Shown here: piece by piece, positions 3,820 through 27,013 of the stretch
Position numbering within the stretch: the stretch's first letter is position 1
Layout of the letters: each line of letters starts with the position of its first letter
From: a virus
Lineage: Duplodnaviria; Caudoviricetes
Reading direction: 5' to 3' (one strand)
Virus record (IMG/VR): IMGVR_UViG_3300006789_000019
Coordinates: 1,461-65,460 of that record
Length of the DNA: 64,000 bases
Made by a program: the position numbers and the translations under genes
Notes under the pieces: generated by a model
The model's database searches: none
Seen by the model: only the letters and a program-made list of their open reading frames with translations
What the model was told of the DNA's origin: nothing

Positions 3820-4113
3820 CTATGCATGAGCATTATTGCCTACAATAGCAATAAATAAGTTCTTTTTAAACTTATCTATATCAGTCGGGCTTTCAAACCA
3901 AACCTGATATAAACTTCTTTGATTAATACTTCTGATATGATACAATCCAGTGACCCCAGCCGTCAATGCAACCCAATCCATTTCTTGGTTTGGTACTGAC
4001 ATAACTAGAATTCGATTTCGCATCATTGTCTGAATAAGTTCAGTTCCTGCTAGCAGGCCCATATCATTTTCGCTTAATGAGCCTGCGTTATCTAATATTT
4101 TTGGTTTATTCAT
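3820..4113 (-). CDS. hypothetical protein (start revised to MNKPK)
   Basis: The ATG at 4113 overlaps the end of the upstream VWA gene; the longer track start would overlap it by more than 100 nt. Confidence 0.7.
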   Translation of the reverse strand: MNKPKILDNAGSLSENDMGLLAGTELIQTMMRNRILVMSVPNQEMDWVALTAGVTGLYHIRSINQRSLYQVWFESPTDIDKFKKNLFIAIVGNNAHA

Positions 4114-10793: not shown

Positions 10794-11894
10794 TTACCAC
10801 CTTCCTGTTTGTTCCCACGGCACATCTTTGTTACCAAAATGACCATATCTGCAATTCTCACTATACTTATAAAACTTAAATAAATCAAACCTATCGATAA
10901 TACCTTTTGGTGTTAAATCAATATTGTTTTCAATAAATTTTTGAATACTGCGATTGTGTCCGTTACTGTCTACATATATACTTGTTGGTTGTTTAACACC
11001 AATAGCATATGATAACTGAATTTGACACCAATCAGCCATGTCATCTGATACGACATTTTTTGCTAGCCAACGTGCCATATAAGCTGCACTTCTATCTACT
11101 TTGGTAGGGTCTTTACCACTAAAAGCGCCGCCGCCATGAGGAGCAAAACCGCCGTAGGTATCCACAATAATTTTTCGGCCAGTAAGGCCTGTATCACCGT
11201 CCGGACCACCAATAACAAAGTTACCAGTAGGATTAAGATGCCAAATAGTATTCTCATCTACATAATCACCTAAAATTGTTTCTGCAGAATGTCGCGCTAA
11301 TTCTTTTGCTAAGATGCCGCAACCATCTGTGTGTTGAGTACTTACGACCACTTGATCAATACGTTTAATTAAACCATCACGCCTGTCACCGTAATATTCT
11401 ACACTAACTTGCGATTTAGCATCAGGGCCTAAAATATCTGTAATCTTACGTTCTTCATTTAAGTCTTTTAAAATTTCATGTGCAAAATGAATCGGTGCTG
11501 GCATCATGCTATCTGTGTGATTACACGCATACCCGAACATAATGCCTTGGTCACCAGCACCAAAACTATCTGTTCCTAATGCGATATCACCTGATTGTTT
11601 ATGAATTTCGTTATAAACATTTAGTCGGTTCCAATGAAACCCGTCTTGTTCGTAACCAATTTCCCGTACTTTATCGCGTACAATTTGTTCTACTTGGTCT
11701 TTACTTAGATTAAAGTTTTTTACTTCGCCCGCCAACGTAACTAAGTTGGTAGTTACAAGTGTTTCAATAGCAACACGAGTTGTTTCATCACCCGCTTTTA
11801 ACCCAGCATCAACAAGTGCATCACTAATCTGATCTGCTATTTTGTCTGGGTGGCCATTACTAACACTTTCGCTTGTAAAAATTTGATTTGTCAT
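10794..11894 (-). CDS. metK: S-adenosylmethionine synthetase
   Basis: FTSESVSNGHPDKIADQISD, GAGDQG, DAKSQV, GLTGRKIIVDTYGG, GGGAFSGKDPTKVDRS. Confidence 0.97.
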   Translation of the reverse strand: MTNQIFTSESVSNGHPDKIADQISDALVDAGLKAGDETTRVAIETLVTTNLVTLAGEVKNFNLSKDQVEQIVRDKVREIGYEQDGFHWNRLNVYNEIHKQSGDIALGTDSFGAGDQGIMFGYACNHTDSMMPAPIHFAHEILKDLNEERKITDILGPDAKSQVSVEYYGDRRDGLIKRIDQVVVSTQHTDGCGILAKELARHSAETILGDYVDENTIWHLNPTGNFVIGGPDGDTGLTGRKIIVDTYGGFAPHGGGAFSGKDPTKVDRSAAYMARWLAKNVVSDDMADWCQIQLSYAIGVKQPTSIYVDSNGHNRSIQKFIENNIDLTPKGIIDRFDLFKFYKYSENCRYGHFGNKDVPWEQTGRW

Positions 11895-11972: not shown

Positions 11973-12938
11973 TTAAGTTCCCCAGGCATTTCCGAATAAT
12001 GTGATGTGGAGTCTTGGAGTGAATCGCCATCCTCTTTCCATACAGGCTTCGGCGACTTCTTGAATATTGAGATTATATTCTTCTGAACGTCCGCCAAGCG
12101 GCATAAGATATACTGGACATTCAAGCCCTGCTTTGCGATACTCCTGCACTGCTCTAGTAACTTCATCAAAATCATCGCTATTAGCGACAACAAACTTAAG
12201 ATAAATATCACTGCCATCCAAGGCGGAATAATTAACAGCAATATCAGGCTTAATAGCATTATCCCAACTTTCCCCTGAAACTGAGAGTTTTGGTGAACAG
12301 CTAAATGTGACTGTAAGTCGGTCATTATCGTTGAGATAATTGAAGAAGTCGACATGTAAATGTTGTGTAGTATTTGTTTCAAATGTGACATTTTTTAAAT
12401 CCTGCATGCGTGGATGCTCAAATAGCTCTACATAAAGTCGTTGCCACGCCAACAACGGCTCGCCACCTGTCATGACCAAATGTATGTCTTGGCCGTTGTC
12501 CATTGTCCACTTGCCTTCTGGTGTAAGTGATAAAAGATGTTCAACTACATCGTCAATAGTTGCTTGTTTATTAAAGTCTTTAAATTCTGGATATATACTT
12601 GCATATGTATCACAACCAGTATGAACAATTGGTAGCTCTTCAAAGGTGGCAGTTTCTTTGTGTACATTATTATTTATTAGTTCAAGAACTTCAGGATTAT
12701 ACCGTCCATTCTCAGAGCCAGCAGGTCTGCCAAAATTTTTGCAACGAAAATTACAGCCAAATGTTCGTAAAAAAACGCTTGGTACCCCTACAAATTTACC
12801 TTCGCCTTGTATACTATAAAATGCTTCACTATATCTAAGTTTCTTTTGTTTGACTGGCTTGACCAAAGAACTAGTAACGTCCGTTGGCGTGCTCAATCTG
12901 TCATCATTATATACATCTAATATATCGGTATTATTCAT
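11973..12938 (-). CDS. queE: 7-carboxy-7-deazaguanine synthase QueE (radical SAM)
   Basis: EAFYSIQGEG, SVFLRTFGCNFRC...GCDT, TGGEPL, ETN, SPKL, RLH; long insertion inside the cluster motif. Confidence 0.9.
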   Translation of the reverse strand: MNNTDILDVYNDDRLSTPTDVTSSLVKPVKQKKLRYSEAFYSIQGEGKFVGVPSVFLRTFGCNFRCKNFGRPAGSENGRYNPEVLELINNNVHKETATFEELPIVHTGCDTYASIYPEFKDFNKQATIDDVVEHLLSLTPEGKWTMDNGQDIHLVMTGGEPLLAWQRLYVELFEHPRMQDLKNVTFETNTTQHLHVDFFNYLNDNDRLTVTFSCSPKLSVSGESWDNAIKPDIAVNYSALDGSDIYLKFVVANSDDFDEVTRAVQEYRKAGLECPVYLMPLGGRSEEYNLNIQEVAEACMERGWRFTPRLHITLFGNAWGT

Positions 12939-13167
12939 CGTTGTTCCTGTCTCTATTGTCTTTTTTCTTAGTCATTTCAATCGAGCCATTATCACGTACA
13001 ATCCATGTTATGGTATCGTCAACATCCAAATCAAGTGCTTTCAATACTTTATCTGGTAACGTAATAGCTACTTCATCATTTCCAACATCAAATGGGGTTA
13101 CTATCCATGAATTTTCGCCAACTTGCCAAATGTATTTAGATGCATCAATTTCTGGGTCATTTGTCAT
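12931..13167 (-). CDS. AbrB/MazE/SpoVT-like DNA-binding protein
   Basis: VAITLPDKVLKALDL..DDTI.W. Confidence 0.7.
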   Translation of the reverse strand: MTNDPEIDASKYIWQVGENSWIVTPFDVGNDEVAITLPDKVLKALDLDVDDTITWIVRDNGSIEMTKKKDNRDRNNDE

Positions 13168-13438
13168 ATAAATTACTCCATATTGTTAATTTATTTTTCT
13201 TAACTTGTATTCTAGCATTAAGTTCTTCTTCTGTCAAGATTCCTTTTTCAATCATAATATCAATCATTGCCATAACATCGCCGGCTTCTGTTACTAATCG
13301 TTGCCTATTGGTGATTTCTCCATTCCCATCATCAATCCCCCAACGATAAATCTTACTGCATGCTTGTGTTAATTCACCACATTCTTCCATAGTGATAACC
13401 ATCAATTCATCTAGATTATTTTTTTCTTTATTTTGCAT
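13157..13438 (-). CDS. MazG-like NTP pyrophosphohydrolase
   Basis: EECGEL...EAGDV (ExxE...ExxD). Confidence 0.8.
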   Translation of the reverse strand: MQNKEKNNLDELMVITMEECGELTQACSKIYRWGIDDGNGEITNRQRLVTEAGDVMAMIDIMIEKGILTEEELNARIQVKKNKLTIWSNLYDK

Positions 13439-13453
13439 ATCAGAATAATTCCT

Positions 13454-13918
13454 TCACTTGTACGCTTTACCAAAGCCTTCAATATATAGCTGCTCGTATT
13501 TCTCGAAACGATATATATGAAAATCATGAAACATTCCATACATTTTTGCACCTTTGCTTACTACGTCAAATTTCTTTAACAATTTTTGAAACATTTCACT
13601 GCGCTTATCATTAGTAAATGGTGCTGGATATAATTTACCCATAACACTATATCTAGGATTATTCATGCGTGATGTATGGCCTTCACTATGTGCAAAATAC
13701 AAACATACACGTTTAGAATGAGTTCTAATATGCCTAGTATGTTCACTTAGATCACTCATTAATAAATATATTTCACCATCGTCGACTACTGGCATTACTT
13801 TTGAAATTAATGGAAATCGTTCATCCATTGTAGCTAGTGCCGCGTGTTCATAATTTTCTATTAATCCATCAATACGTTCTTGAACTTCAGGCGTAATCTC
13901 ATGATACATATCATCCAT
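13454..13918 (-). CDS. pyridoxamine 5'-phosphate oxidase/HugZ-like split-barrel protein
   Basis: AALAT..P..S, SDLSEHT, R.S..G, DF......GFGKAY. Confidence 0.75.
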   Translation of the reverse strand: MDDMYHEITPEVQERIDGLIENYEHAALATMDERFPLISKVMPVVDDGEIYLLMSDLSEHTRHIRTHSKRVCLYFAHSEGHTSRMNNPRYSVMGKLYPAPFTNDKRSEMFQKLLKKFDVVSKGAKMYGMFHDFHIYRFEKYEQLYIEGFGKAYK

Positions 13919-13923
13919 AATAC

Positions 13924-14232
13924 TTACCCTCCGCCGGATAATTTGTTTAGGAATATCTTTTGGTCGATTCTCTTTTCAATATCTATTTCAACATCAAAGT
14001 TTTTAGTTAATACCATTTCTTTAATAATATCTGTTAATACTTCAATTTCATATGTTTGTCGTCGCAGTGTTTCTCCTACTTTTATATCGCCTTGGTTATC
14101 GTGATTAATCACTATATCTCTATCGGGATCAAGTGTTGTATTACCTAACGTCAGGGTGCCAGAATACGCCGGTGGCGCACTAGGCGGTGGGCCATTGGCA
14201 GTCGATACAAGGACTGGGGTTTTGGGTGCCAT
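13924..14232 (-). CDS. hypothetical protein
   Basis: AGGAG RBS; Pro-rich N-terminus. Confidence 0.75.
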   Translation of the reverse strand: MAPKTPVLVSTANGPPPSAPPAYSGTLTLGNTTLDPDRDIVINHDNQGDIKVGETLRRQTYEIEVLTDIIKEMVLTKNFDVEIDIEKRIDQKIFLNKLSGGG

Positions 14233-14254
14233 TATTTTCTCCTTTGTTTACGTT

Positions 14255-17005
14255 TTAAAAGCGGCCTATTAGTTTAATGCCAAACTCTGATTTAGTGGCG
14301 CCGCTTTCACCTGCATAGTTGTTGCGTAACTCTGCAAACAAGCTCAAGTTAGTTACTGGAGTAAGCTCTGCATCATAAAACATGCCTACACTATACTCAC
14401 GTGCATTGTTAGCAAGCGAACTTGTCATTGTACTGTGATGGATATCGCCACTTAAACTCACGCTGGTGGGCATTTCAAAAGTTACATCTGCATCTGTAAT
14501 AGCAACTGGAAGTGCTGCTACTAGTCCGAATGTAGAACGATTGTCTACTACAAATCTAGTACCTACCCTTGCACTATTAGACAATACAGTAGACGCTGAT
14601 TTCATCATAGCATCGCTATTTACATTTAACTCAGTAACACCAAATGATGCTGCGCCAAATACATTAATACCACGAGCAATTGTTTGTTCAGCTTCATATC
14701 CAAGATATAATGTAGTACCACCATTAATATCCATAATAGCATTGTCTGCATAGTTACCAAGGAATGTATCATCTTCATGTAATACACCTAGTGCTAGATT
14801 GCTATTTACTTGATACGATATCCCAAAGCCATTGCCGCCACCTACATTTATTATAGTATTTAGGCTGGTGTCAACTGGAATAGTTATACCTCTTGCATAA
14901 CCTGCATATTCATCAATTTGCGTGTTATTTTGAACTGCTTTAGTAATTTGCACTGTGCGAGTATCAATGCCGGAAATTAATTCGTTACCGTTGATATAAA
15001 AGTCTCGATCATAATCATCAATAACCATCATTTCATCTAATGCTGAAACTGATGCACCTGCAATATTAAGTGATTGGCTAGCATCTACTTCTACTGTTTC
15101 ACCATTAACACGCCCTGTAGTTGGGATACCTATTACGCCTTGTGGACTTGTTGCTTCATCCAAATCCATCATACCTTGACCATGAATATGTTCGTCATAA
15201 TGTGCAAAGGCTTTATCGCCAGTGGATAGCAATAACTTAACTAAGTTTTCGCCCGTCATATGTGGCCACTGTTGGTGTAGCAAAGCAATGCCGCCTGTAA
15301 TATGCGGTGCTGCCATTGACGTACCAGACATTGTCTCGTATTCACCGTCATTATTAGTAGACATTACGTAGGAACCAGGCGCCAGTAAGTAATAATCACT
15401 AATACGATATTGGTTATTACATGTGTTTTGTTCTTCATTATAATCAAAACATACGGTACCAGCTTTATTGCTATTAAAGTTTAAACCATTAGTCGCTTTC
15501 GCATCATAATTACCAGCAACAATGACACGGCCGCCCAATGCTAATTCACCATTTTCATCTTCCAATACTGCCAGATGCGCTGGGAAAGTTGTAATATCTG
15601 ATCGATCATTACCTGCTGAAGCTACTAGTACCATTTCATTACCGCTCATTGCTGCAATAGTGCTATCAACAAATGCATTATCCAGTATATGAAAATAGCC
15701 ATTGTCAGCAAATGTAGTTCCATCTGCTTTCCAAGATCGACTGTCTGTAGATCGGTATAATCCATCTTCAATCTTGACAAGACTGTTTTTATAGGTAGTA
15801 TCTATTCTGGTATTAGCACTAACGTTTGCTACAACTGCATTATTATTAGCAGCCCAGGCAAGTGCTTTTGCCATATCTGTCATATTAACCATACCATATG
15901 CACCTGTAGTAATTTTACCAATTAACAAATTGGCATCTGGTGCTACGCCCGTCATGCCTTCACCATCTAATGCTGCTGCGGCGATACCAGCAACATGTGT
16001 ACCGTGACCAGATATATCATCAACAGCCTCACCTTTATAATCACAGCCATATGAGAAACATTCTAAATTAAGAATACGATTAACAAATTCTGGATGATCT
16101 GTATCAATACCAGAATCTAGAATAGCAATGGTTGAACCTAATCCAGTCCATCCACGTGCCCATGCTGCTGGTGCATTAATTTGTTCTAGGTTACGACCGT
16201 ATTCTGCCCAACCTAAATCGATAGTAGACTTCTTAAATCCAGACCATTGATTTTGTGCGGCTTTTAAGTATGCATCAGTACCAGTAACAATTACATCTGG
16301 TCGTGCCAGATATTCTTCTTCAGTTAATATATTGACTGTTTTGGTACTAGATTGATCATTACCAACATCTTCTTCGACCACAAGAGCATATTGGCGCAAC
16401 AGATTTGTTTCTGTATCTGTGCGCATATCTTGTGTGATCTCAGTATTTTTTAATTCACCACTAGTAGTTGTAAACTTAGTACCATCGCTATAATGCTTAG
16501 TAGTATACGTGAATACAAATGATCTAGTGGTTACATCAGTAGCATATTGTCTAACAAATTCCTCAAAAACAGACACTATATTATCTTCTGTTTCTTCGTA
16601 AGTTCGCTCAACAGTACTATATAGATATTCTTCGCCACGCTTTACTTGGACATAATCCTTGGTAGTAATTACAGTTTCAATTACTGCTGGCGCTGCGGAA
16701 TTTAGCGTTGCTTGTAGGTCTTTCCAACGAGTAAGCTGTTCTGTATATGTTGCTAATCTGTCAACATAAATTTTTGCCCAAGAATAATGGCCATATTTGG
16801 CTACAATATTCTCGTATACAGCATTTCGTCGCTCCAGCGATTTTGTAATAACATCTACAAAATTACGCTGTGAAGCTGCATTTTTAATATTAGTGGCATA
16901 ATTATAATAAAAGTCGCTGAATGCGTAGGCTTGTTGTGGTACTGCCGTCAACGACATAGCGAATGCTGCAGCCGCAATAGCTTTACTTAACTTATTTAAA
17001 AGCAT
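14255..17005 (-). CDS. secreted subtilisin-like S8 serine protease with a probable C-terminal beta-barrel (autotransporter-like); start revised
   Basis: GAGG RBS before ATG 17005; signal peptide ending AYA; ILDSG, GHGTHVAG, AGN, SGTSMAAP; amphipathic beta C-terminus ending in F. Confidence 0.88.
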   Translation of the reverse strand: MLLNKLSKAIAAAAFAMSLTAVPQQAYAFSDFYYNYATNIKNAASQRNFVDVITKSLERRNAVYENIVAKYGHYSWAKIYVDRLATYTEQLTRWKDLQATLNSAAPAVIETVITTKDYVQVKRGEEYLYSTVERTYEETEDNIVSVFEEFVRQYATDVTTRSFVFTYTTKHYSDGTKFTTTSGELKNTEITQDMRTDTETNLLRQYALVVEEDVGNDQSSTKTVNILTEEEYLARPDVIVTGTDAYLKAAQNQWSGFKKSTIDLGWAEYGRNLEQINAPAAWARGWTGLGSTIAILDSGIDTDHPEFVNRILNLECFSYGCDYKGEAVDDISGHGTHVAGIAAAALDGEGMTGVAPDANLLIGKITTGAYGMVNMTDMAKALAWAANNNAVVANVSANTRIDTTYKNSLVKIEDGLYRSTDSRSWKADGTTFADNGYFHILDNAFVDSTIAAMSGNEMVLVASAGNDRSDITTFPAHLAVLEDENGELALGGRVIVAGNYDAKATNGLNFNSNKAGTVCFDYNEEQNTCNNQYRISDYYLLAPGSYVMSTNNDGEYETMSGTSMAAPHITGGIALLHQQWPHMTGENLVKLLLSTGDKAFAHYDEHIHGQGMMDLDEATSPQGVIGIPTTGRVNGETVEVDASQSLNIAGASVSALDEMMVIDDYDRDFYINGNELISGIDTRTVQITKAVQNNTQIDEYAGYARGITIPVDTSLNTIINVGGGNGFGISYQVNSNLALGVLHEDDTFLGNYADNAIMDINGGTTLYLGYEAEQTIARGINVFGAASFGVTELNVNSDAMMKSASTVLSNSARVGTRFVVDNRSTFGLVAALPVAITDADVTFEMPTSVSLSGDIHHSTMTSSLANNAREYSVGMFYDAELTPVTNLSLFAELRNNYAGESGATKSEFGIKLIGRF

Positions 17006-17038
17006 TAGAGTTTCCTCATAATTGTTAACTAAGTATAG

Positions 17039-17067
17039 AGTATACAGCAATACGTCTTACTTGTCAA
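17039..17067 (-). promoter_or_regulatory. sigma70 promoter TTGACA-N17-TATACT with a 14-bp operator-like box
   Basis: The spacer holds CAATACGTCTTACT (17048-17061), the reverse complement of 7249-7262. Confidence 0.75.
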
Positions 17068-17077
17068 GCATTATGAG

Positions 17078-17650
17078 TTATTTTTTTGATGTTATGGGCG
17101 ATTCCCAGTGTGCGTGGCATCGTGGTTCATATGATTCAGCACCGCCTATATTTACTCTGCCACCAGATTGTACAATGCGTTGTGTTTTACTTGCGGTTGC
17201 ACCGCATACATTACAGTAACTTGATATTTTTACTACTTGGTCAGCTAATGCCAATAGCCTAGCTGTGGTGTCAAACGGTATTCCACGACTATCTTGATCT
17301 AAGCCAGCACATACGAAATTTACTCCGTCACGCAAGCCTTCTTCAATAAACCATAATGATTCTTTTGGATCAAAGAACTGTACTTCATCAATAAAAACTG
17401 TATGGAAATTATATGGCTTAATATTATAATTATCTTTTACTAATTCTAAATCAATAACAGAAAGAGCAGAATGGCTTAAATGATTATGTGTTACGATTTT
17501 ATCTGGATCAAAACGATCATCTATTACTGGTTTTAACACTAACACCTTTTCACCACTGTGTTCCAAAAAAAGCAGCCGTTTTAATAATTCACTACTTTTC
17601 CCAGCAAACATTGGTCCACTAATAACCTCTAGCTTACCGCGTTTATACAT
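17078..17650 (-). CDS. tdk: thymidine kinase
   Basis: GPMFAGKS, FIDEVQF, AGLD.D, C..C Zn site, IGG.ESYEPRC..H. Confidence 0.95.
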   Translation of the reverse strand: MYKRGKLEVISGPMFAGKSSELLKRLLFLEHSGEKVLVLKPVIDDRFDPDKIVTHNHLSHSALSVIDLELVKDNYNIKPYNFHTVFIDEVQFFDPKESLWFIEEGLRDGVNFVCAGLDQDSRGIPFDTTARLLALADQVVKISSYCNVCGATASKTQRIVQSGGRVNIGGAESYEPRCHAHWESPITSKK

Positions 17651-17789
17651 CTTCTTGCTTCCTTGCCATTACGACTTTATACCAACGCATTAACCAAATT
17701 AATTTTTGTGGGTAATGCGTTGGATTAGGTATATTTTCTTCTCCAAAGTATTCAATGAATCCTTTAATGTCATCATCACTTATATTCAT
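17643..17789 (-). CDS. 48-aa hypothetical protein (not in ORF track)
   Basis: MNISDDDIKGFIEYFGEENIPNPTHYPQKLIWLMRWYKVVMARKQEDV*. It abuts the PRTase stop and overlaps the tdk start. Confidence 0.65.
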   Translation of the reverse strand: MNISDDDIKGFIEYFGEENIPNPTHYPQKLIWLMRWYKVVMARKQEDV

Positions 17790-18338
17790 TTATGCTTTGC
17801 CATAATTGCGTTCACCTTCCCAAGGGAAAACAATCCAAGTTGGATCTTCTGCCTTGTTAATTTCCTGTGCGGTATAATCAACCTCATTAAATGAACTAGC
17901 ATCATTATCAATTAACGTTGCGAAGCGAACATTTTGGCCCCAAACTTCATCCCATCGCGAGCTAGACGGCTGGCACATGGTTCGCCAATCTTTTTTAATC
18001 CACTCTAACGTTTTGCCTGAATCGTTAATATCATCTACAATAAGTATATTTTTCTGTGTATTGTCATGATTATAACCAAACGCATCGTTAGCCATCCAAC
18101 TATTACTTTCTGGTTCTAGCAAGCCAGTTTCATTATCACGAAAACGAACATCCAACGTATACATTGGAATATTAGTCATATTACTTAATATTGTAGATAC
18201 TGGCAAACCGCCTCGCGTAATTCCAACAATATAATCTGGACGCCAATTATCGGCATACATTAGATTATTGATAACCATAATCATGTGTTCAACATCTTTC
18301 CACGTATAATATACTTTATTACTTTTTGTTCCCATCAT
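17790..18338 (-). CDS. purine (xanthine/guanine-type) phosphoribosyltransferase
   Basis: PDYIVGITRGGL, ILIVDDINDSGKT (PRPP-binding loop), WIVFPWE. Confidence 0.88.
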   Translation of the reverse strand: MMGTKSNKVYYTWKDVEHMIMVINNLMYADNWRPDYIVGITRGGLPVSTILSNMTNIPMYTLDVRFRDNETGLLEPESNSWMANDAFGYNHDNTQKNILIVDDINDSGKTLEWIKKDWRTMCQPSSSRWDEVWGQNVRFATLIDNDASSFNEVDYTAQEINKAEDPTWIVFPWEGERNYGKA

Positions 18339-18388
18339 TGATCTCCTTCACAATTGTTATTTTTTAATTCTACATATTTCAAGATAAT

Positions 18389-19090
18389 TTATCGCGGCGC
18401 AAACTCTTGCTGTAACTTGATATTATCAAAGAACTCTTTCTTAGTACCTGGGTCAGTGTGGAAACTCCCTTTTAGTACTGATGTCTGTGTCAACGAACTA
18501 TGCGCCATAATACCACGATTCTCACAACAACCATGGATTGCTTGAATGTAAACGCCAACGTCGTCACTGCCTGTTGCAGTACGTATTTCACGATTAATAT
18601 CCATGGCCAATTCCTCCTGCAAAGTGCCGCGTCTAGCACACCACTGAGCAATCCGTGTATACTTACTGAGGCCAATCAGTGTATCAGCAGCAATAATACC
18701 AATATATGCAATACCAGTAACTGGTTGGTGATGGTGACTGCACATGCTTTTAAGTTCACTACGTACAACTAACATACCGTCATATTTTTCATTTGTGACA
18801 TGATTTGGTTCATTTGGAAATGCAGTTGCGCTGGGCGCTGGATCATACCGCCCTGCCATAATCTCGTTAATATACATCTTAGCCAAACGGCGGCCAGTAT
18901 CCATGCTATTTGGATCATTAAATCGATCGATAACCAAACTGTCTAGAACTTGTTCAAATTGCTCTGTTAATTCAGAGATCAATTCTTCTTTTTCACCGTC
19001 TTTAATAAATTCACTAATGTTGTCAGCGGCAAAGTGTCGCTTGTCTGCTTTTTCTAGCCGAGTTTTAATTACTTTTGATATTTTATCCAT
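18389..19090 (-). CDS. folE: GTP cyclohydrolase I
   Basis: SMCSHH, IGLSK..R, R..LQE, HGC...RG. Confidence 0.95.
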   Translation of the reverse strand: MDKISKVIKTRLEKADKRHFAADNISEFIKDGEKEELISELTEQFEQVLDSLVIDRFNDPNSMDTGRRLAKMYINEIMAGRYDPAPSATAFPNEPNHVTNEKYDGMLVVRSELKSMCSHHHQPVTGIAYIGIIAADTLIGLSKYTRIAQWCARRGTLQEELAMDINREIRTATGSDDVGVYIQAIHGCCENRGIMAHSSLTQTSVLKGSFHTDPGTKKEFFDNIKLQQEFAPR

Positions 19091-19141
19091 AATGCTTAGG
19101 TTCTCCTCTATAAAGTTAAAATATTCTATTTTTCAGTATAT

Positions 19142-19170
19142 ATTATATAATCAATAATATATTATGTCAA
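19142..19170 (-). promoter_or_regulatory. consensus sigma70 promoter TTGACA-N17-TATAAT
   Basis: Perfect consensus upstream of folE. Confidence 0.85.
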
Positions 19171-19174
19171 CAAC

Positions 19175-20251
19175 TTATTGATTACATTCGCTTTTTTCTA
19201 ATAAGCAGTCAATCATAATATCGCAATTCAAATAATCACTAACCAAACGTTCTTGTTGTTGTTTAATCAATTCCTTATATTGGTCATAATTATCTAATTT
19301 GTCTTGTATAAATTCTTTAAGATCAGTAGCATGTATCTTATACTGCTCTACTGACTCAGTCCATTCACTTGGATACTTAAATTCTGGCAAATACATTTCA
19401 CTGTAGCTACAACGATCTGGCAATACAGGAATTGCACCAGTTAGTACCGCTTCCATAACACTAATGCCTAAGTTTTCATGTAATGCACAACTAAAAATAA
19501 CCTTGCACGTTGACATAGTATCATAATATGCTTCTTTCTCTAACGACATTTTTTGTGTAATAATCATGTCAAAATCTTCAGCAAGTAGCTCTGCAATTTC
19601 TGGTTGTTTGTCATCATTATATCGATGCGGCCACAATACTGTGTCGGTCTTTTTATTTGTCTGACGCTTGCATAAATTGTCAACAATAAGCTCATGCGGT
19701 TGGCCACTACGTACTGCACGATTGCGATAATCAGCTGGGATATCTAAGTTTGTAAGAAACATGTTTTTATGACTTTCTGTAGCATAGTAATTATAATCAC
19801 TACACATAAACCAGCTCTGTTCTTGAAGCCATGGCCATGGCTTGCTCATTTTATACCCTAAAATATCACTTGGATCATAAGCACCAGCATGCCAAATACT
19901 GTGGATTTCAACAGGAATATCTAACAAATCACTCATGTATTTGATTGGTGTAATAATAAAATTCCAAGCGTCCGTAATTAAAAACTTGTCACCTGGCTTG
20001 ATTAAGCCATCGCTAAATGCCTGACTTACTGCCATTGCTTGGCTTGATTTATATACGTTGGTTGCACCAAAATCCAAAAATGCGCCTGGAGTAGTATTTT
20101 CAGCAATTGCCTGACCTTCAATAGTAACTACGTTATAATCAAGTTCACGTTCTGCAATACGTGTTTTCAGTATGGCTGGAATGTTATCATACCATTGCTT
20201 TGTGTAACGCTGGTCAATTGGTTCTAAGCATACAATCCAAATTGTATTCAT
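19175..20251 (-). CDS. GT-B fold glycosyltransferase (candidate DNA-base glycosyltransferase); start revised to MNTIW
   Basis: GGAG RBS before ATG 20251; HR..DKQP and ENLGISVMEA (Ex7E) GT-B motifs; WHAGAYDP. Confidence 0.8.
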   Translation of the reverse strand: MNTIWIVCLEPIDQRYTKQWYDNIPAILKTRIAERELDYNVVTIEGQAIAENTTPGAFLDFGATNVYKSSQAMAVSQAFSDGLIKPGDKFLITDAWNFIITPIKYMSDLLDIPVEIHSIWHAGAYDPSDILGYKMSKPWPWLQEQSWFMCSDYNYYATESHKNMFLTNLDIPADYRNRAVRSGQPHELIVDNLCKRQTNKKTDTVLWPHRYNDDKQPEIAELLAEDFDMIITQKMSLEKEAYYDTMSTCKVIFSCALHENLGISVMEAVLTGAIPVLPDRCSYSEMYLPEFKYPSEWTESVEQYKIHATDLKEFIQDKLDNYDQYKELIKQQQERLVSDYLNCDIMIDCLLEKSECNQ

Positions 20252-20255
20252 TAAA

Positions 20256-20531
20256 TTATTCTCCTGATAGTTTGTTGAGCATTGCATATTTTTCATATTC
20301 TCTATGTTGCTCATGATCAAAATGCCCAAATACTATAAAATTATGTGTTAGTTTAAGTGGATTATAATCAACTCCCATTGAGATTGCTGCACCAAGCCCC
20401 AATACAAACTTTCCTATATCAGTAAATGAAAATTCACTTACAATTGTAGACTGCCTAAAGTCATTAATATCAGCAATTATAAACTCTACTTCTGTCACAG
20501 ATTTAAACCAAATCGCTTCCTTGATAATCAA
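20256..20531 (-). CDS. hypothetical protein
   Basis: Fills the gap between coupled genes. Confidence 0.6.
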   Translation of the reverse strand: MIIKEAIWFKSVTEVEFIIADINDFRQSTIVSEFSFTDIGKFVLGLGAAISMGVDYNPLKLTHNFIVFGHFDHEQHREYEKYAMLNKLSGE

Positions 20532-20533
20532 TG

Positions 20534-21307
20534 CTAGTCTCTCCGTTCAATGTCATTTTCAGTAAGGCTGGTTCCCATCCAAACTTCAATAACTTTTGCC
20601 GTACACTCTCCTACATTGTATGCTTTATGCCATGTTAAAACAGGAATATCAATGCTATCACCTGGACTATATGTTTTGCTTTCACGATCTCCGTTAGCAA
20701 ACTCTAAGTCCATGCGAATTTTACCTTCAATAACATGCCAATGCTCACTGCGATTAAAATGACGTTGATCGCTTAATGGCTGATGTGCTCCAAACGCAAG
20801 TTCTTTAACTTGCCAACCAGAGCCTTTATGCAATACAGTATAACTACCCCAAGCCCGTGTTGTAGTAGGTTGGCTCCATTCTTTAAGAATCCAACTACTA
20901 CTATTTTTCTTATCGTCGCCGCCAACAGCAAACTCAAATGACAATCGAGGATCTGAAATTTTCATTTCTGGAATGTTGTCAGCTTCTCTGTCACCACCAT
21001 TAGCAAATACAAGGCTATCACTCGCTGGCAGTGTATCCAATACTTGTTTAATAGCATCAATAGCACTGCCGTCATCATCACAAAAACTTATAACTTCATC
21101 TACACAACCAAGGGCGTTTGCAATAGCTGACCGTTCAGACCAAGGCATAAATCCTTGTCCTTTTTTGCGGCAAAGCCAAGCATCGCTGTTAACTCCAACA
21201 ACTAGTCTTGCACCAGGAATTAGTTGCTTTGCTGCCTCTAAATATGCAATATGACCACTATGAATTGGATCAAATCCGCCTGTAACTAATACAGTTGTGT
21301 TTGACAT
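20534..21307 (-). CDS. cytidylyl/adenylyltransferase (RfaE/TagD-like) fused to a mannose-6-phosphate-isomerase-type cupin
   Basis: TGGFDPIHSGH (HxGH), GVNSD, ANGGDR, NSSS; R.WG.Y, S.QRH..RSEHW. Confidence 0.88.
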   Translation of the reverse strand: MSNTTVLVTGGFDPIHSGHIAYLEAAKQLIPGARLVVGVNSDAWLCRKKGQGFMPWSERSAIANALGCVDEVISFCDDDGSAIDAIKQVLDTLPASDSLVFANGGDREADNIPEMKISDPRLSFEFAVGGDDKKNSSSWILKEWSQPTTTRAWGSYTVLHKGSGWQVKELAFGAHQPLSDQRHFNRSEHWHVIEGKIRMDLEFANGDRESKTYSPGDSIDIPVLTWHKAYNVGECTAKVIEVWMGTSLTENDIERRD

Positions 21308-21308
21308 A

Positions 21309-22817
21309 TTATACCTCTAATGTTTCTAGAAATTCTTCAGCAGCTTCTTCTGCTTCTGCTGACATTTCTTCTTCATCAAGCAAATTATCGTCAACATCAA
21401 ATAAGCTATTAAAGCTATTTGTTGTATTTGTCAATGTCTTTTGTCCGTTAAAGTTTGCTAACATTGGTGCTGCTTCATCAAGCATTTGCATAGGTGTTTC
21501 ACTGCGAAATAATTCTTCAATGAAGTTAACCATATAAACAATGTTACGAGGGACATACGGATCAAATTGTTGTTGCTTTTGTTGTTTTGGTGTTAGTTTC
21601 TGCCAAGTCTTATGACTAGTATCAAACTGTGCTGCTACAATATCAGTTAATGCATTGGCACGTTGAACACTTTCAATATGCTGGAATACATTATGTGACA
21701 TTAACAACATGTAGCTAAAGCTATCCCATGATGTTTTACCTTCTTTACCAATTTTGTTTAGCATACCTGGACCATAATGGCAAACATCACCTAACGTCAT
21801 ACGCTCACCAATTGGACTGCCCCAAGGAAACGGTTTATCACTTCCGCTAAAGATCTTGTTATCCATAGCTTTTTCCATTACATACATAAAGCGATCATTC
21901 TTATGAATGTGTTGTGTATATAATGTACCGTTCGCCGTTGCTAAGAACGGACTAGCACAATCAAACATAACTTCAATATCTGAATTCACTGTTTCACGCA
22001 AAGCGCGTTTAATTGCAGTATAAGCCATTGCCCACTCAAGACGGCTAATACCTAGATAGTGAAGAACATCACGTTTTCCTTTTTCTAGTTGGCCATCATC
22101 ACGCATCTTAATTAATGTGCGAAGTACAATATTAATGTCATTTTTAGCACTGCCACCAAAGGCAAATCCTTCAAGATCATGATGCTTCATAGTATCATAC
22201 CAATGTTCAGCCTCGGCCCAGTTGCGGCCTTGCATTACATTAAGATACTTAGTTTGATACTTGCGATTGCGTTTAAACCATTCTACGTTGTGATTAGTAA
22301 ACTCTAGACATTGGTTAAAACTAGTAATACCTGTGCGTTCTGTAAATGTTGGATCAGCAGCAAGAGTTGGTATGTCCAATATCATACTGTAGTCACCAGT
22401 ATGTTCTAACCAATTTAAAATTTTATGGCGTAAGCTATCATCTGTTTTGAAGTTTTTCCAATCACATTTGATAACGCCTTTGATAATTTGAAATCCGCCA
22501 CTATCACAGAGCATAAATGTATTGTCTCTGTCGCGTTGTTGGACCATGGCATCATCTGTATCTGCTTTATCTAGATTTAATTGTGCATGGCCAGCAGAAT
22601 ACAATCCCCACTTATATGGAAAGTGTGCTTGATCACGATTAAGGAAGTTCATGCCTTCCATGCCATTTTCAAATCCATCTGGCATTCGGTCATTACTGAT
22701 AAAATCAGGATTAGATCGTTGCTTCGCAATGTAATTATTATAAAATGTACTGATGCTGGGTAAAAAGATAGCATAATCTTTATTGCGAGCAGTTAGATCG
22801 ACGGTTGTTCCTGTCAT
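21309..22817 (-). CDS. dpdA: TGT-fold guanine transglycosylase, DpdA-like (DNA 7-deazaguanine insertion)
   Basis: CDSGGFQ TGT signature, MILD.P, NVMQG, GFAFGG, HYLG, FDCASP; no TGT Zn-binding C-terminus seen; que genes nearby. Confidence 0.75.
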   Translation of the reverse strand: MTGTTVDLTARNKDYAIFLPSISTFYNNYIAKQRSNPDFISNDRMPDGFENGMEGMNFLNRDQAHFPYKWGLYSAGHAQLNLDKADTDDAMVQQRDRDNTFMLCDSGGFQIIKGVIKCDWKNFKTDDSLRHKILNWLEHTGDYSMILDIPTLAADPTFTERTGITSFNQCLEFTNHNVEWFKRNRKYQTKYLNVMQGRNWAEAEHWYDTMKHHDLEGFAFGGSAKNDINIVLRTLIKMRDDGQLEKGKRDVLHYLGISRLEWAMAYTAIKRALRETVNSDIEVMFDCASPFLATANGTLYTQHIHKNDRFMYVMEKAMDNKIFSGSDKPFPWGSPIGERMTLGDVCHYGPGMLNKIGKEGKTSWDSFSYMLLMSHNVFQHIESVQRANALTDIVAAQFDTSHKTWQKLTPKQQKQQQFDPYVPRNIVYMVNFIEELFRSETPMQMLDEAAPMLANFNGQKTLTNTTNSFNSLFDVDDNLLDEEEMSAEAEEAAEEFLETLEV

Positions 22818-22840
22818 ATATTATTCCTCAGGTTTAGTAT

Positions 22841-22869
22841 ATTATACCATAAAACAAAGCAAAAGTCAA
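22841..22869 (-). promoter_or_regulatory. sigma70 promoter TTGACT-N17-TATAAT (extended -10)
   Basis: Directly upstream of the DpdA-like gene. Confidence 0.8.
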
Positions 22870-22879
22870 GACTTGCATG

Positions 22880-22908
22880 AAAACTTCCATGGTTACCATG
22901 GAAGTTTT
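22880..22908. terminator. perfect inverted repeat / intrinsic terminator
   Basis: AAAACTTCCATGG-TTA-CCATGGAAGTTTT. Confidence 0.75.
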
Positions 22909-22922
22909 TCAATTACATAAAT

Positions 22923-23249
22923 TTATTTCTTTACTTTTGTTAATGGATATTGGAGCGTACCAACATGAATTTTTAGCTTCTTGGTTGCTCGATCTCGATA
23001 TATTTTAATACCAACATCAAAAGTTATGGCGTTATCCTTGACTGTATAATAAATATTATACTCTTTGATTTTACCAGTAAACTTTAGATCGCCAAGATAG
23101 GAATTAAACAAGCTACGAACTTGCTCAGTATCTTTTCGATTAAACATATAACCATCATACGGGGCTATGATTTTCAACAAATCATATTTAATATCAGAAA
23201 TTGTATAAGACCCTGAAATGGTCAATCTTGGTTGGGCTTTGGTTGTCAT
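22923..23249 (-). CDS. hypothetical protein (weak resemblance to a tail-sheath C-terminal domain)
   Basis: AAGGA RBS; pattern YL.DLK..G.I.EY.I. Confidence 0.65.
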   Translation of the reverse strand: MTTKAQPRLTISGSYTISDIKYDLLKIIAPYDGYMFNRKDTEQVRSLFNSYLGDLKFTGKIKEYNIYYTVKDNAITFDVGIKIYRDRATKKLKIHVGTLQYPLTKVKK

Positions 23250-23264
23250 TATTATAGTCCTTGA

Positions 23265-23660
23265 TTAAGGGTTGACTTTGAAAGTTAGAGTTGCACCGTT
23301 TTCGTTATCTTCGCTAACGGTAACTTTAAAATTGCGGCCTGGATAGCGTTTGGTAATTTCTTGTGCTAAATCCTCAGCCATCATTTCACAACTCTTGTAG
23401 TCTAATTCCAGGGTTCCCTGAGAATATAGACGATCAATCCAGCGTTTAAGCTGAATAAATTCAATGTCACGATCGTTATGTTCTACTTCGATCGAAACAT
23501 TAAAATGGAATATATGACGATGAGGCACTCCTAAGAATGATACATCGTCCCATTCACCAGTCGCAAGTTTTGGATCAGTGTCAGCACCTGGATAGAAATG
23601 AATTCCTTCCTTTGACCAATTAACCCAAACTTCACGCTTTGCAACTACTAGTTGACTCAT
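23265..23660 (-). CDS. dpdL: QueD/6-pyruvoyl-tetrahydropterin synthase paralogue (T-fold), DpdL-like
   Basis: H...FLGVPHRHIFH (LxxxHRHxF rather than the QueD CxxxHGH), SCEMMA, VSEDNENGA. Confidence 0.65.
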   Translation of the reverse strand: MSQLVVAKREVWVNWSKEGIHFYPGADTDPKLATGEWDDVSFLGVPHRHIFHFNVSIEVEHNDRDIEFIQLKRWIDRLYSQGTLELDYKSCEMMAEDLAQEITKRYPGRNFKVTVSEDNENGATLTFKVNP

Positions 23661-24961: not shown

Positions 24962-25912
24962 TCATTTATACTGTTTTAAGTTGTGATTTACATCAATTAT
25001 TTTTTTTAATATATCACTACCTGTAAAATTATGAAATGCTTCAACATCTTTAGGGAAACAATGTCCACTAAAGCCTAGGCTGCCTTCATCATTTGGTGCT
25101 TGCATATGACTTGGTCCAATATTTTCAAATGTAGATAGAATCCTAATCATATCATGATGATCATAATAGTCACCCATTAAGCTATACACTTCATGAAAAT
25201 ATGCAACTTTCATTGCAAGCCAAGTATTATGCATATATTTTACCATACTTGCTGTAGTACGATCAGTCTTTAAGAATTCAACATCCATATAACTAAACAC
25301 CATATGCCAATATCTGCGATCTAGTCCACCAAGTATAAAAGTCTTTTGGTTTTTGAAATCTTCTTTGGCGGTTTTGGCGCGTAAAAATTCTGGATTATAA
25401 GTTACATTTTCTGGATAATGCTGCAACTGATCTGGTGGTACAGTACTTTTTAACAGTATTTTAATTTTTGGATTGGTAGCAATTAGCTCTGCAATAACTG
25501 ATTGTATAATACTATCATCACATACATTATCAACCGTAGGTGTTGGTACGCATACAATTGCTGCGTTCGCGTCTGGATGGTCTTGTATAGTTTCACTACT
25601 ATGTGCTGGATCGATAATTATATGTTCTTTTATGTGCGGTTTAATATGTTCGCCAATTGCACTACCTACAAAACCCCAGCCGACACTTAATAATTTTAAC
25701 TCTGTTCTAATATTGGCGCCCAATTCTTGTTGTTCATGGTTCCATACTTCATCACGTAAACTTTTTAATTCATTACTATAATGATCAATCTGGAATTGGT
25801 AACTTGGCTCGTTAGTTTTGTAAAATAGCTCTATTGCAATATCCAAGTTATTTTCTACATTTTTTATAATACCGTTCATTTGTTGTCGTTTTTTACTTAT
25901 TTCTGTACCCAA
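24962..25912 (-). CDS. short-form UDP-glucose/GDP-mannose dehydrogenase with an N-terminal extension
   Basis: GWGFVG, CVPTP, KSTVPP, NPEFL, KY..N, GFSGHCFPKD; C-terminal UDP-binding domain absent. Confidence 0.85.
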   Translation of the reverse strand: MGTEISKKRQQMNGIIKNVENNLDIAIELFYKTNEPSYQFQIDHYSNELKSLRDEVWNHEQQELGANIRTELKLLSVGWGFVGSAIGEHIKPHIKEHIIIDPAHSSETIQDHPDANAAIVCVPTPTVDNVCDDSIIQSVIAELIATNPKIKILLKSTVPPDQLQHYPENVTYNPEFLRAKTAKEDFKNQKTFILGGLDRRYWHMVFSYMDVEFLKTDRTTASMVKYMHNTWLAMKVAYFHEVYSLMGDYYDHHDMIRILSTFENIGPSHMQAPNDEGSLGFSGHCFPKDVEAFHNFTGSDILKKIIDVNHNLKQYK

Positions 25913-25924
25913 ACTATATACTCC

Positions 25925-27013
25925 CTATTTAAATTGTGCGCCAAATGGGTCAAATTCATCACCACATTTCATAGCACAAACACCTAGCTTTCCGTCTGCT
26001 ATAGATTTTTTATTCCAACTATCCTGTATATTATGCATAATACCAGTTTCAAATACACCCCTAATTCCAAATAATTTAGCATTTAGCATTTCTTTGCCGC
26101 CTACTTCATCAATGAAATCCCATATTTGTTCTACTTTAGGATCTTTATGCCACCACTTGTACATTCTGCCGGCTGTCCAACAGCATGGAAGAACAATACC
26201 TTCAGCAGTTACAAATATATTTTTTTCCTTTGCTACTTTGCATTTAATCCCACATTTATTGTAGTATTCCATCATACTACCGTAGGTGTTTTCGATCTCT
26301 TTTAACTTTAATAATTCTAAATTTTGATGTTCTTTGGCTTTGGGCTTGGCAAGTGTTTGCATGGCAATGCCTTTGCGATTCTTTGCTTGATGTATTTCTT
26401 TCGACTCGCTATTAGCAGTAATGAAACGACCTGTTTTCTTTTTCATAAAACGTTCAACGCCCCACTCTTTGGCTAACTGTTCTGCACGTTCTACATCACA
26501 CTCTGAATGCTCAAATATTAAATAGTCCCAACGAGCACGGCCGCCTGCAGCTATGAATGCCTTCATATTGCGTTCAACATTTTCCCATTGTACACCTTGT
26601 CTGTATAAGTGATTTGTTTCTTCTAATCCATCCACACTGAAAATAACTGCACCATTTCTACCAATGGTACGTGCTAACTCAGCCCACCAGTCTGGCGTTT
26701 TTGCACCAGCCATAGTATTCATGCTTAACCACATTTTTGTATTAATACTGCGCAAATATTTAAACACATCTAATGTATCTTTGGCTACGATTGGATCGCC
26801 TAAATTACCACACATGTATAATGTTTTTAATTGCCTGACAAATTCTGGCAAGAATATATCCTTGCAGTCTTCTAAACTTAGCTCTTGAATACAGTTACGA
26901 ATATGTTGATTTACTGGGCCACCATTTTCATTACGATCACACATAGGACAACTGGCACTACAATTTTGTGTGATTTCTAAATGTACTGTTTCTATATCTT
27001 CGTATATATACAT
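25925..27013 (-). CDS. radical SAM protein with C-terminal SPASM/twitch domain
   Basis: CSASCPMC, CGNLGDP, FSVDG, C...G.VLPCC...C...C. Confidence 0.9.
   Translation of the reverse strand: MYIYEDIETVHLEITQNCSASCPMCDRNENGGPVNQHIRNCIQELSLEDCKDIFLPEFVRQLKTLYMCGNLGDPIVAKDTLDVFKYLRSINTKMWLSMNTMAGAKTPDWWAELARTIGRNGAVIFSVDGLEETNHLYRQGVQWENVERNMKAFIAAGGRARWDYLIFEHSECDVERAEQLAKEWGVERFMKKKTGRFITANSESKEIHQAKNRKGIAMQTLAKPKAKEHQNLELLKLKEIENTYGSMMEYYNKCGIKCKVAKEKNIFVTAEGIVLPCCWTAGRMYKWWHKDPKVEQIWDFIDEVGGKEMLNAKLFGIRGVFETGIMHNIQDSWNKKSIADGKLGVCAMKCGDEFDPFGAQFK

Follow-up and report, generated by a model that had tools for sequence, protein, structure and literature searches.

Why would a phage keep a glycosyltransferase (GT) gene in the middle of a cluster of genes for 7-deazaguanine DNA modification? 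The question is raised by a 64,000-nucleotide stretch of DNA (hereafter, the window; 64,000 of the 65,460 bases of the IMG/VR viral record IMGVR_UViG_3300006789_000019, Duplodnaviria, Caudoviricetes), where a GT is encoded together with FolE, a QueE-like enzyme, DpdL, and a divergent relative of the tRNA-guanine transglycosylases (TGTs) and DpdA proteins. Here we show that deazaguanine clusters of the DpdL type include this GT as a conserved component. Very probably, the region is a module for 7-deazaguanine DNA modification of the DpdL type that belongs to a marine jumbo phage, and the GT appears, with almost the same confidence, to be a functional member of that module. The source record is 18% complete by the CheckV estimate, that is, a fragment of a phage genome of ~350 kb. 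The minus strand carries every gene from 0.3 to 39 kb of the window, and all cluster genes that a first-pass annotation had named from the sequence alone are present on that strand where it had placed them. The deazaguanine region is located inside a replication and nucleotide metabolism block, with genes for a sliding-clamp-like protein, a 5'-3' exonuclease/RNase H, thymidine kinase, and S-adenosylmethionine (SAM) synthetase.

A collection of 50,697 phage records was searched for homologs of the GT, DpdL, and the TGT-like protein. GT homologs were detected in 22 records and DpdL in 28, with both present in 17, namely, 11 PA5oct-like phages, Phosso, two ACP17 records, BCSR5, BUDD, and X1; the other five GT-encoding records (the PhiXhv/Ep group, ~24% identity) show a weak TGT-like match. 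Profile searches identified GT orthologs in Phosso, PA5oct, ACP17, BUDD, and BCSR5 at E-values from 5e-120 to 2.5e-37. Both the GT and DpdL are orthologous across these five phages, and the transglycosylase belongs to two subfamilies. The gene order (x, other gene) is TGT-GT-DpdL-x-epimerase-PRTase-QueE in PA5oct (PRTase, phosphoribosyltransferase), QueD-x-FolE-x-DpdA-GT-DpdL-QueE in ACP17, DpdL-GT-x-FolE...QueE in Phosso, FolE-PP-loop-x-x-GT-TGT-DpdL-QueE in BUDD, and DpdL-...-PIG-L-like-x-GT-DpdA-x-QueE...FolE in BCSR5.

The GT family is large, with more than 3,400 protein clusters and at least 596 loci in IMG/VR. Two sets of these loci were analyzed: the best 80 of the at least 596 (first set), and 60 further loci with more distant family members, seeded with BUDD, BCSR5, and PhiXhv proteins (second set). 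In the first set, genes encoded on the same strand as the GT include those for DpdL (70 loci), the window-type transglycosylase (65), the ACP17-type transglycosylase (7), FolE (62), and QueE (47). At least one deazaguanine gene is present in 79 of these 80 loci, the sole exception being a contig of 7,978 bases that has the GT close to its end, and in all 60 loci of the second set, where DpdL is found in 51. Altogether, the GT is located near at least one deazaguanine gene in 139 of the 140 loci, many of which share descent, so that these counts do not represent independent events. No more than 300 bp separate the DpdL gene from the GT gene in 47/80 first-set and 29/59 second-set loci, and the gene order varies, with seven distinct arrangements in the first set and nine in the second. 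The DpdA, DpdL, GT, and QueD genes of a 178-kb relative that is 99% complete overlap via stop/start codons. That the genes have stayed together despite rearrangement and a switch of transglycosylase type speaks for function. The association of the GT with DpdA and DpdL, which the first-pass annotation had drawn from this one locus, is thus strongly borne out, both in cultured phages and across IMG/VR.

The assignment of DpdL is based on a motif and on homology. Residues 43-51 of the window protein, LGVPHRHIF, fit the pattern LxxxHRHxF in place of the CxxxHGH of QueD; among 34 family members, H49 and F51 never vary, and conservation is 90% or higher at L43, H47, and R48. This signature is in print as that of DpdL, a QueD paralog (Cui et al. 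2023, PMC10516641, in the portion of the article available), and the window protein is homologous to DpdL of phage phiST: the tblastn match to the phiST locus (2e-10, 34.6% identity over 95% of the query) coincides with CGPG_00067. The match to ACP17 DpdL is stronger (tblastn, 1e-32), and a profile built from the 34 relatives retrieves CGPG_00067 at 2.2e-27 and ACP17 DpdL at 2e-52. The window protein also matches phrog_17812 (2.6e-31), and the family comprises 2,118 representatives at E<=0.001. The connection to the T-fold and to 6-pyruvoyl-tetrahydropterin synthase (PTPS) is faint: no PTPS match was obtained for the window protein, the best PDB match is 2dj6 (E 0.068), which we take to be a PTPS homolog, the DpdL profile aligns with ACP17 QueD at 8% in hhalign, and a fused DpdL homolog reaches 1.4e-4 against PF01242 (22.3 bits, cut-off 22.4). 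A sub-threshold match of DpdL to FAD_binding_7 (2.3e-4) was dismissed as due to chance.

The 502-amino acid (aa) protein is a probable member of the TGT superfamily, judging from profile matches and motif positions. Its residues 101-303 match TIGR00449 (1.5e-4, 20.8 bits against a cut-off of 47.6); there is no Pfam match at 0.01, and PF01702 appears only at 0.046. The latter model is matched by 11 of 40 relatives at E<0.1 (best, 0.0036) and by 17% of the members of a related Atlas cluster. D105 of DSGGFQ and D286 of MFDC are invariant in the 40 relatives; in Tgt, the two aspartates of the DSGGFQ and (M)FDC motifs have catalytic roles. The MFDC motif aligns with MFDC of Escherichia coli Tgt, and DSGGFQ aligns with DSGGLQ of the ACP17-type DpdA, which itself aligns with TDSGGFQ of E. 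coli Tgt. The DpdA of the ACP17/BUDD/BCSR5 type (424-446 aa), which adjoins the GT in these phages, thus provides an intermediate: the window type aligns with it at 89.6% (hhalign, E 1.9e-6), and it aligns with E. coli Tgt at 79% (1.6e-5), with both motifs in register. The BUDD member is annotated as queuine tRNA-ribosyltransferase. In the phage collection, HMMER orthologs of the window type are confined to PA5oct-like phages and Phosso; the family at large includes more than 7,000 clusters at 90% identity, nearly all unnamed. A sequence search of PDB with the transglycosylase profile yielded only chance kinase matches (E ~1). The C-terminal 42 residues of the protein (window 21309-21434) carry a net charge of about -15 and recall replisome-docking tails; such a tail could recruit the enzyme to replicating DNA.

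Several observations indicate that the GT is a GT4-like enzyme of the GT-B type. PF00534 (Glycos_transf_1) is found in 29% of the members of the related Atlas clusters, and ten sequences representing six lineages all share residues R210, K215, E259, G262, and E267. The E-x7-E spacing together with an R/K pair is typical of the GT4 donor site. All four PDB matches of the GT profile at E<=10 are of the GT4 type (8xsg, 0.0056; WlaC, 0.028; WbaZ-1, 0.11; GlgM, 0.95), with the similarity confined to the C-terminal half; a match to a designed Kelch-like protein in the PDB search was rejected as a spurious repeat match. No fused forms of the GT turned up in a search of the 628-2000 aa range, which is weak evidence. 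The most likely start of the GT gene is the ATG at 20251 rather than the TTG at 20329, because the GT homologs begin at that internal ATG, and with this predicted start the gene does not overlap the 91-aa open reading frame (ORF) upstream.

The features of the region are collected in Table 1. The genes from the transglycosylase through the nucleotidyltransferase (NTase)-cupin fusion and the 91-aa ORF to the GT are separated by only 1-4 nucleotides. A sigma-70 promoter had been proposed to head this run, and a consensus match is indeed found there; however, folE has a perfect promoter-like site of its own, and promoter-like sites are not enriched in the window compared with shuffled sequences (40 vs 34.1 +/- 5.7). 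The 108-aa ORF between dpdL and the transglycosylase gene has no match in Pfam, PHROG, or NCBIfam.

Table 1. Features of the deazaguanine region, in window coordinates
Feature	Position	Strand	Basis
DpdL (QueD/T-fold paralog; proposed 7-carboxy-7-deazaguanine decarboxylase), 131 aa, LGVPHRHIF	23265..23660	-	homology to phiST and ACP17 DpdL
108-aa ORF between dpdL and the transglycosylase gene	22923..23249	-	homolog in 7/80 first-set loci
Sigma-70-like match TTGACT-17-(TG)TATAAT, 11/12, extended -10, upstream of the transglycosylase gene	22841..22869	-	consensus match only
Divergent TGT/DpdA-like transglycosylase, 502 aa, DSGGFQ (D105), MFDC (D286), acidic C-terminal tail	21309..22817	-	weak TGT-model matches
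Cytidylyltransferase-like (RfaE domain II-like) + type II phosphomannose isomerase-like cupin fusion, 257 aa	20534..21307	-	PF01467, PF01050
91-aa ORF (TTG start), doubtful gene	20256..20531	-	no family match; homolog in 0/80 first-set loci
GT4-like (GT-B type) glycosyltransferase, 358 aa, WHAGAYDP, R210/K215, E259-x7-E267	19175..20251	-	sub-threshold PF00534
Perfect (12/12) sigma-70-like match TTGACA-17-TATAAT upstream of folE	19142..19170	-	consensus match only
FolE, GTP cyclohydrolase I	18389..19090	-	PF01227, phrog_2197
Xanthine/guanine-type PRTase-like protein, adjoins folE	17790..18338	-	PF00156
QueE-like radical SAM enzyme (7-carboxy-7-deazaguanine synthase), divergent	11973..12938	-	phrog_2076
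SAM synthetase	10794..11894	-	three S-AdoMet_synt domains, 1.4e-57 to 9.4e-33

The upstream part of the pathway was assessed in the window and in five larger relatives (99%, 44%, 100%, 100%, and 71% complete). FolE matches PF01227 (5.2e-36, 124.2 bits against a cut-off of 27) and phrog_2197 (3.4e-42), as well as NCBIfam FolE models below their equivalog cut-offs. The QueE-like protein matches phrog_2076 (2.2e-54), the annotated QueE of BUDD (8e-47) and PA5oct (4e-29) and, far below all cut-offs, five NCBIfam QueE models (7e-14 to 6e-8); the Radical_SAM match is only sub-threshold. The protein contains the CNFRC...C and GGEP motifs, with a large insertion in the cluster-binding motif. No QueC, PTPS, or QueF match was detected in the 65,460-base record, ArcS and Gat-QueC not being among the families searched. 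Because the record covers ~18% of the genome, the first-pass description of the cluster as lacking QueC and a canonical QueD cannot be read from the window. In the larger relatives, canonical PTPS/QueD is encoded by four of the five, including all three complete ones, and QueD is therefore expected in the unseen part of the window phage genome. QueC yielded only sub-threshold partial matches, with one exception that passes only when fragments are summed, and QueF exceeded its cut-off in none of the five. Thus, with neither a solid QueC nor QueF in the relatives, the clade is probably QueC-less, and the part of the description that concerned QueD is given up.

The PRTase-like protein adjoining folE matches PF00156 (1.2e-13) and, below the cut-off, the NCBIfam xanthine PRTase model NF006613 as the best of that collection (5e-9). 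A PRTase is encoded in 43/80 first-set and 12/60 second-set loci, and in PA5oct it lies between dpdL and queE. Its probable role is to salvage the guanine that base exchange releases from DNA, returning it to the GTP pool on which FolE draws. The radical SAM steps are likely supported by the SAM synthetase. The window also encodes a nucleosidase specific for 5'-methylthioadenosine or S-adenosylhomocysteine by type (342-896; NF004168, 8.3e-30, sub-threshold) and several radical SAM proteins (973-2397, 11973-12938, and 25925-27013); the nucleosidase and the SAM synthetase near radical SAM genes look like a phage kit for sustaining radical SAM chemistry.

The sugar-related genes next to the GT differ between lineages, in line with independent recruitment. 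The NTase-cupin fusion of the window matches PF01467 (9.1e-12), PF01050 (MannoseP_isomer; 3.3e-19), and TIGR02199 (1.1e-16), and is similar to cytidylyltransferases in PDB at E-values down to 8.5e-10. It is encoded in 14/80 first-set loci, nearly always immediately upstream of the GT; the sugar-activating fusion that the first-pass annotation had placed beside the GT is thus present but specific to some lineages. In PA5oct, a short NAD-epimerase/dehydratase is found near the GT instead. A PIG-L/LmbE-like deacetylase is encoded near the GT in 9/60 second-set loci, of the BCSR5 type, with AH(x)DD...HxxH, the signature of these deacetylases. Fusions of a PIG-L-like domain with DpdL were identified in three IMG/VR loci (L096:4415-5161, L097:7544-8287, L099:2606-3382). 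These proteins, of 247-258 aa, consist of an N-terminal deacetylase domain (APHLDDE...HxxH) and a C-terminal DpdL domain (HRHxF), an architecture shared by the protein P0260. Such a fusion is a predicted Rosetta-stone link of amino-sugar chemistry to DpdL, and because the partner of PIG-L is a T-fold enzyme, it suggests that DpdL handles a small molecule to which the sugar is attached. Pfam scans of other DpdL fusion partners were mostly uninformative, the exceptions being Vut_1 (a YhhQ-type queuosine-precursor transporter) in P0355 and a PP-loop domain resembling 3'-phosphoadenosine-5'-phosphosulfate (PAPS) reductase in P0382. PP-loop proteins of the same PAPS-reductase-like kind are encoded in the BUDD- and BCSR5-type clusters.

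These genes suggest a pathway to which, taken as a whole, we assign a probability of about 0.5. FolE and QueE, along with the QueD expected elsewhere in the genome, would convert GTP to 7-carboxy-7-deazaguanine (CDG). DpdL, without QueC, would divert the pathway from 7-cyano-7-deazaguanine (preQ0), the published proposal being decarboxylation to 7-deazaguanine. The GT would then, most likely, add a sugar to the deazaguanine moiety, in the lineage of the window with a donor that probably comes from the adjacent cytidylyltransferase-cupin fusion, and the divergent transglycosylase would swap guanine in phage DNA for the modified base. Because eukaryotic-type TGTs accept bulky 7-substituents, insertion of a glycosylated base would be feasible. 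The analysis demonstrates the gene identities, the homologies, and the conserved linkage, and the literature supplies dDG in phiST and a modified G in PA5oct; we infer the sugar adduct, the position of the sugar, the order of the steps, and the role of the PRTase. In the first-pass annotation, the GT was proposed to add a sugar to CDG or 7-deazaguanine; its place in the module has held up, and a sugar on the final DNA base is plausible from context but conjectural, at slightly less than even odds. Action of the GT on DNA is the less favored option: the PIG-L::DpdL fusions and the acidity of the GT (see below) suggest glycosylation of the free base or another small molecule before insertion. 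More tentatively still, we propose that an entire, widespread clade of large phages replaces G by a glycosylated 7-deazaguanine that is made at the small-molecule stage and inserted by a new, large DpdA subfamily.

A number of observations weigh against this pathway. The GT of the window matches PF00534 below the threshold (0.006, 16.6 bits, cut-off 26.4), as do its orthologs from ACP17 (21.1), PA5oct (19.0), and Phosso (12.8), and its N-terminal, acceptor half has no detectable relatives in PDB searches. The GT is strongly acidic in every lineage (isoelectric point, 4.7-6.0; net charge, -6 to -22), which is a poor fit for a DNA-binding enzyme and weakly favors a small-molecule acceptor. The proposed acceptor, 7-deazaguanine, has no obvious acceptor group at C7. 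The assignment of the transglycosylase is the sum of several weak signals: directly compared with E. coli Tgt, the window type reaches only 15.7% in hhalign, and no named DpdA subfamily fits, given that phiST DpdA3 shows no detectable similarity (2%), the ACP17 type gives no HMMER match, and bDpdA, DpdA1, DpdA2, and DpdA4 were not part of the comparison. The window is rich in other sugar and radical SAM genes unrelated to the cluster, so that nearby sugar genes alone mean little, and the shared descent of many loci reduces the weight of the linkage counts. In the phage collection, seven DpdL-encoding lineages have no GT match, which implies that the GT is dispensable for the core pathway; phiST and its relatives encode DpdL without the GT and have plain 2'-deoxy-7-deazaguanosine (dDG). 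Decarboxylation of CDG by DpdL (CGPG_00067 in phiST) was proposed but never demonstrated, and an attempt in E. coli failed (PMC10516641, in the portion available).

The alternative that survives best, itself unlikely, is that the DNA of these phages contains plain dDG or its 7-carboxy counterpart (dCDG), as in phiST, and that the GT serves another acceptor (a protein, an envelope glycan, or a metabolite) and merely travels with the replication module. It would accommodate phiST, where dDG is found with DpdL and DpdA3 and no GT, along with the seven GT-less DpdL lineages and the many unrelated sugar genes of the window. It would also fit the Xanthomonas phage PhiXhv-12, in which a distant GT homolog belongs to a GlmS - PIG-L deacetylase - GT run (L088, 120910-124144 of the record; the deacetylase above the Pfam threshold), ~94 kb from the weak TGT-like match of this phage, with no DpdL detected in PhiXhv-12; this homolog may mark the edge of the family or another acceptor. 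Such a passenger role is hard to reconcile with deazaguanine genes in 139 of 140 GT loci and the frequent adjacency of DpdL (47/80 and 29/59), with linkage that survives shuffled gene orders and two transglycosylase subfamilies, with the overlapping stop/start codons in the 99%-complete relative, and with the PIG-L::DpdL fusions, which tie sugar chemistry to DpdL itself.

The same fusions, three loci in which a T-fold enzyme is joined to a PIG-L deacetylase, both being enzymes that act on small molecules, can be read in yet another way, which we consider less likely again: that the GT and its partners act on soluble intermediates only, to provide a transient sugar handle or protecting group, or a huimycin-like soluble glycoside, with dDG or an amide-type derivative in the DNA. 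The strong acidity of the GT, the DpdL fused to a Vut_1 domain, and the PAPS-reductase-like PP-loop proteins of the BUDD- and BCSR5-type clusters are in line with this possibility, as are reports, from sources available in part, that the bacterial enzyme HuiG glycosylates free 7-deazapurine bases and that QueC-like enzymes couple CDG to amines. However, no sugar-removing hydrolase was identified, the transglycosylase is nearly always present, and PA5oct is attacked by nucleases described, in the accessible part of the preprint, as sensing hypermodified DNA (PMC12191111). Finally, a pre-replicative route, on which the PRTase would make a deazaguanine nucleotide that is reduced, phosphorylated, and polymerized, leaving the TGT-like protein to tRNA modification or proofreading of residual G, is improbable: it could draw on the recurrence of the PRTase (43/80 and 12/60 loci, and PA5oct), on tubercidin-type pathways that use a PRTase on CDG (bioRxiv 2026.04.15.718813, available part), and on the nucleoside of 7-amido-7-deazaguanine (ADG) in phage CP220-infected cells cited by Cui et al. 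(PMC10516641), but these authors argue, in the portion of the article available, that all known deazaguanine DNA modifications are post-replicative, with DpdA always present, the PRTase was not found in the fetched ACP17 and BUDD loci nor in many others, and its presence is explained equally well by salvage of the displaced guanine to GTP for use by FolE.

Glycosylation of a hydroxymethyl pyrimidine was considered as well and appears unlikely as the conserved role of the GT: the thymidylate synthase family PF00303 is found in none of the three complete GT-encoding relatives. The window itself encodes a full-length thymidylate synthase (52166-53005; PF00303, 8.5e-104, 341 bits) that resembles ordinary ThyA.

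Several neighboring genes in the window were rejected as parts of the cluster or stand apart from it. A UDP-glucose dehydrogenase-like gene (24962-25912) is found in only 8/80 first-set loci, and the radical SAM gene next to it (25925-27013) in only 2/80. The former is one of two genes for UDP-glucose/GDP-mannose dehydrogenase-like proteins; it is truncated (316 aa, without the C-terminal domain), and the other lies at 39872-41110. Between queE and the PRTase gene, the window encodes a HugZ/HutZ-like protein of the heme-oxygenase family (13454-13918; 4.3e-13, sub-threshold) and a 931-aa subtilase (14255-17050). A DUF2201 metallopeptidase/VWA-like protein and an adjoining AAA ATPase (4106-5290 and 5756-6874) form a MoxR/VWA-like pair. 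A full-length TctA tricarboxylate transporter subunit (30860-32368; 2.5e-86) and a carbamoyltransferase (34824-36335; 1.8e-53) are unusual auxiliary metabolic genes.

Among the main defenses of phages against restriction and CRISPR are deazaguanine modifications of DNA. Eight deazaguanine derivatives of DNA are known, and we know of none with a sugar; glycosylated queuosines exist in tRNA. A literature search, which left out most subscription journals, turned up no description of a sugar-bearing deazaguanine in DNA, and Cui et al. 2023 (PMC10516641) do not use the term 'glycosyl' in their main text. The presence of a conserved GT in DpdL-type clusters suggests that another family of G modifications, probably a bulkier one, exists in phages that include the cultured ACP17, BUDD, and PA5oct, the last a therapy candidate. 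If the glycosylated-deazaguanine pathway is real, possible attachment sites for the sugar would be C7, which is electron-rich, and a nitrogen, either in the ring or exocyclic. The clusters would then yield new enzymes for making modified DNA, namely, a glycosyltransferase acting on bases or on DNA, together with a large subfamily of DpdA.

Among the closest known systems is that of the Cellulophaga phage phiST. It shares with the window FolE, QueE, DpdL with LxxxHRHxF, a DNA transglycosylase candidate, the lack of QueC (for the window, within the ~18% of the genome that the record covers), and the location of the cluster beside replication genes, and its DNA carries plain dDG, for which Cui et al. 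give an [M+H]+ of 267.109 (PMC10516641, in the portion available). It differs in the absence of the GT, the PRTase, and the NTase-cupin fusion, and in its DpdA3 of 259 aa compared with the 502-aa protein of the window. The Acidovorax phage ACP17 encodes an orthologous GT (ASD50404; 31% identity) between dpdA and dpdL, with a DpdA of another subfamily (424 aa). In the available text of Cui et al., ACP17 DpdL and DpdA were co-expressed in E. coli without the GT, and no dDG was obtained (PMC10516641); under the glycosylation pathway, the missing GT would explain this outcome.

Another close system is that of the Pseudomonas jumbo phage PA5oct (Wroclawvirus), which encodes, in one block (EST35_0316-0322), orthologs of the TGT-like protein (EST35_0316; 35% identity), the GT (EST35_0317; 37%), and DpdL (59%), together with the PRTase and QueE, and has a short epimerase/dehydratase and not the NTase-cupin fusion of the window. 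PA5oct DNA resists five restriction enzymes with G-containing sites and is susceptible to nucleases that recognize G modifications, from which the authors infer modified G and point to QueE and PTPS (PMC12191111, available part). The accessible part of this preprint gives no mass-spectrometric identity of the modification and mentions neither a GT nor DpdA (PMC12191111). The orthologous TGT-like protein and the restriction-resistant G sites point indirectly to base exchange on DNA by this protein, and glycosylation by the GT may account for the G modification of PA5oct.

A GT4 enzyme with a PIG-L protein makes the classical pair for transfer of N-acetylglucosamine (GlcNAc) followed by deacetylation, as in MshA/MshB, BshA/BshB, and PIG-A/PIG-L. 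The GT and the PIG-L-like protein of the BCSR5- and PhiXhv-type clusters resemble such pairs, suggesting transfer of GlcNAc and then de-N-acetylation; the acceptor in those systems is inositol phosphate, malate, or phosphatidylinositol, whereas here it would be a deazaguanine derivative, and the deacetylase is absent from the lineage of the window. The nearest precedent found for the reaction itself, by described function, is HuiG of the huimycin pathway, likewise a GT that acts on a 7-deazapurine: it transfers GlcNAc from UDP-GlcNAc to a nitrogen of the free, preQ0-derived base (bioRxiv 2026.04.15.718813, available part). The product of HuiG is a soluble antibiotic-like nucleoside and not DNA, and the huimycin pathway retains QueC.

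The T-even phages, compared by description only, offer the parallel of a phage GT-B-type enzyme that decorates a non-canonical DNA base. These phages glucosylate 5-hydroxymethylcytosine, and the sugars diversify between lineages. The acceptor in their case is a hydroxymethyl pyrimidine that depends on a thymidylate synthase homolog, a gene lacking in all three complete GT-encoding relatives of the window phage. Should the deazaguanine pathway proposed here hold, the sugar would vary by lineage in a similar manner, with a donor made by the NTase-cupin fusion in the window phage and GlcNAc deacetylated to glucosamine in BCSR5-type phages, in parallel to the diversification of sugars on the 5-hydroxymethylcytosine of T-even phages.

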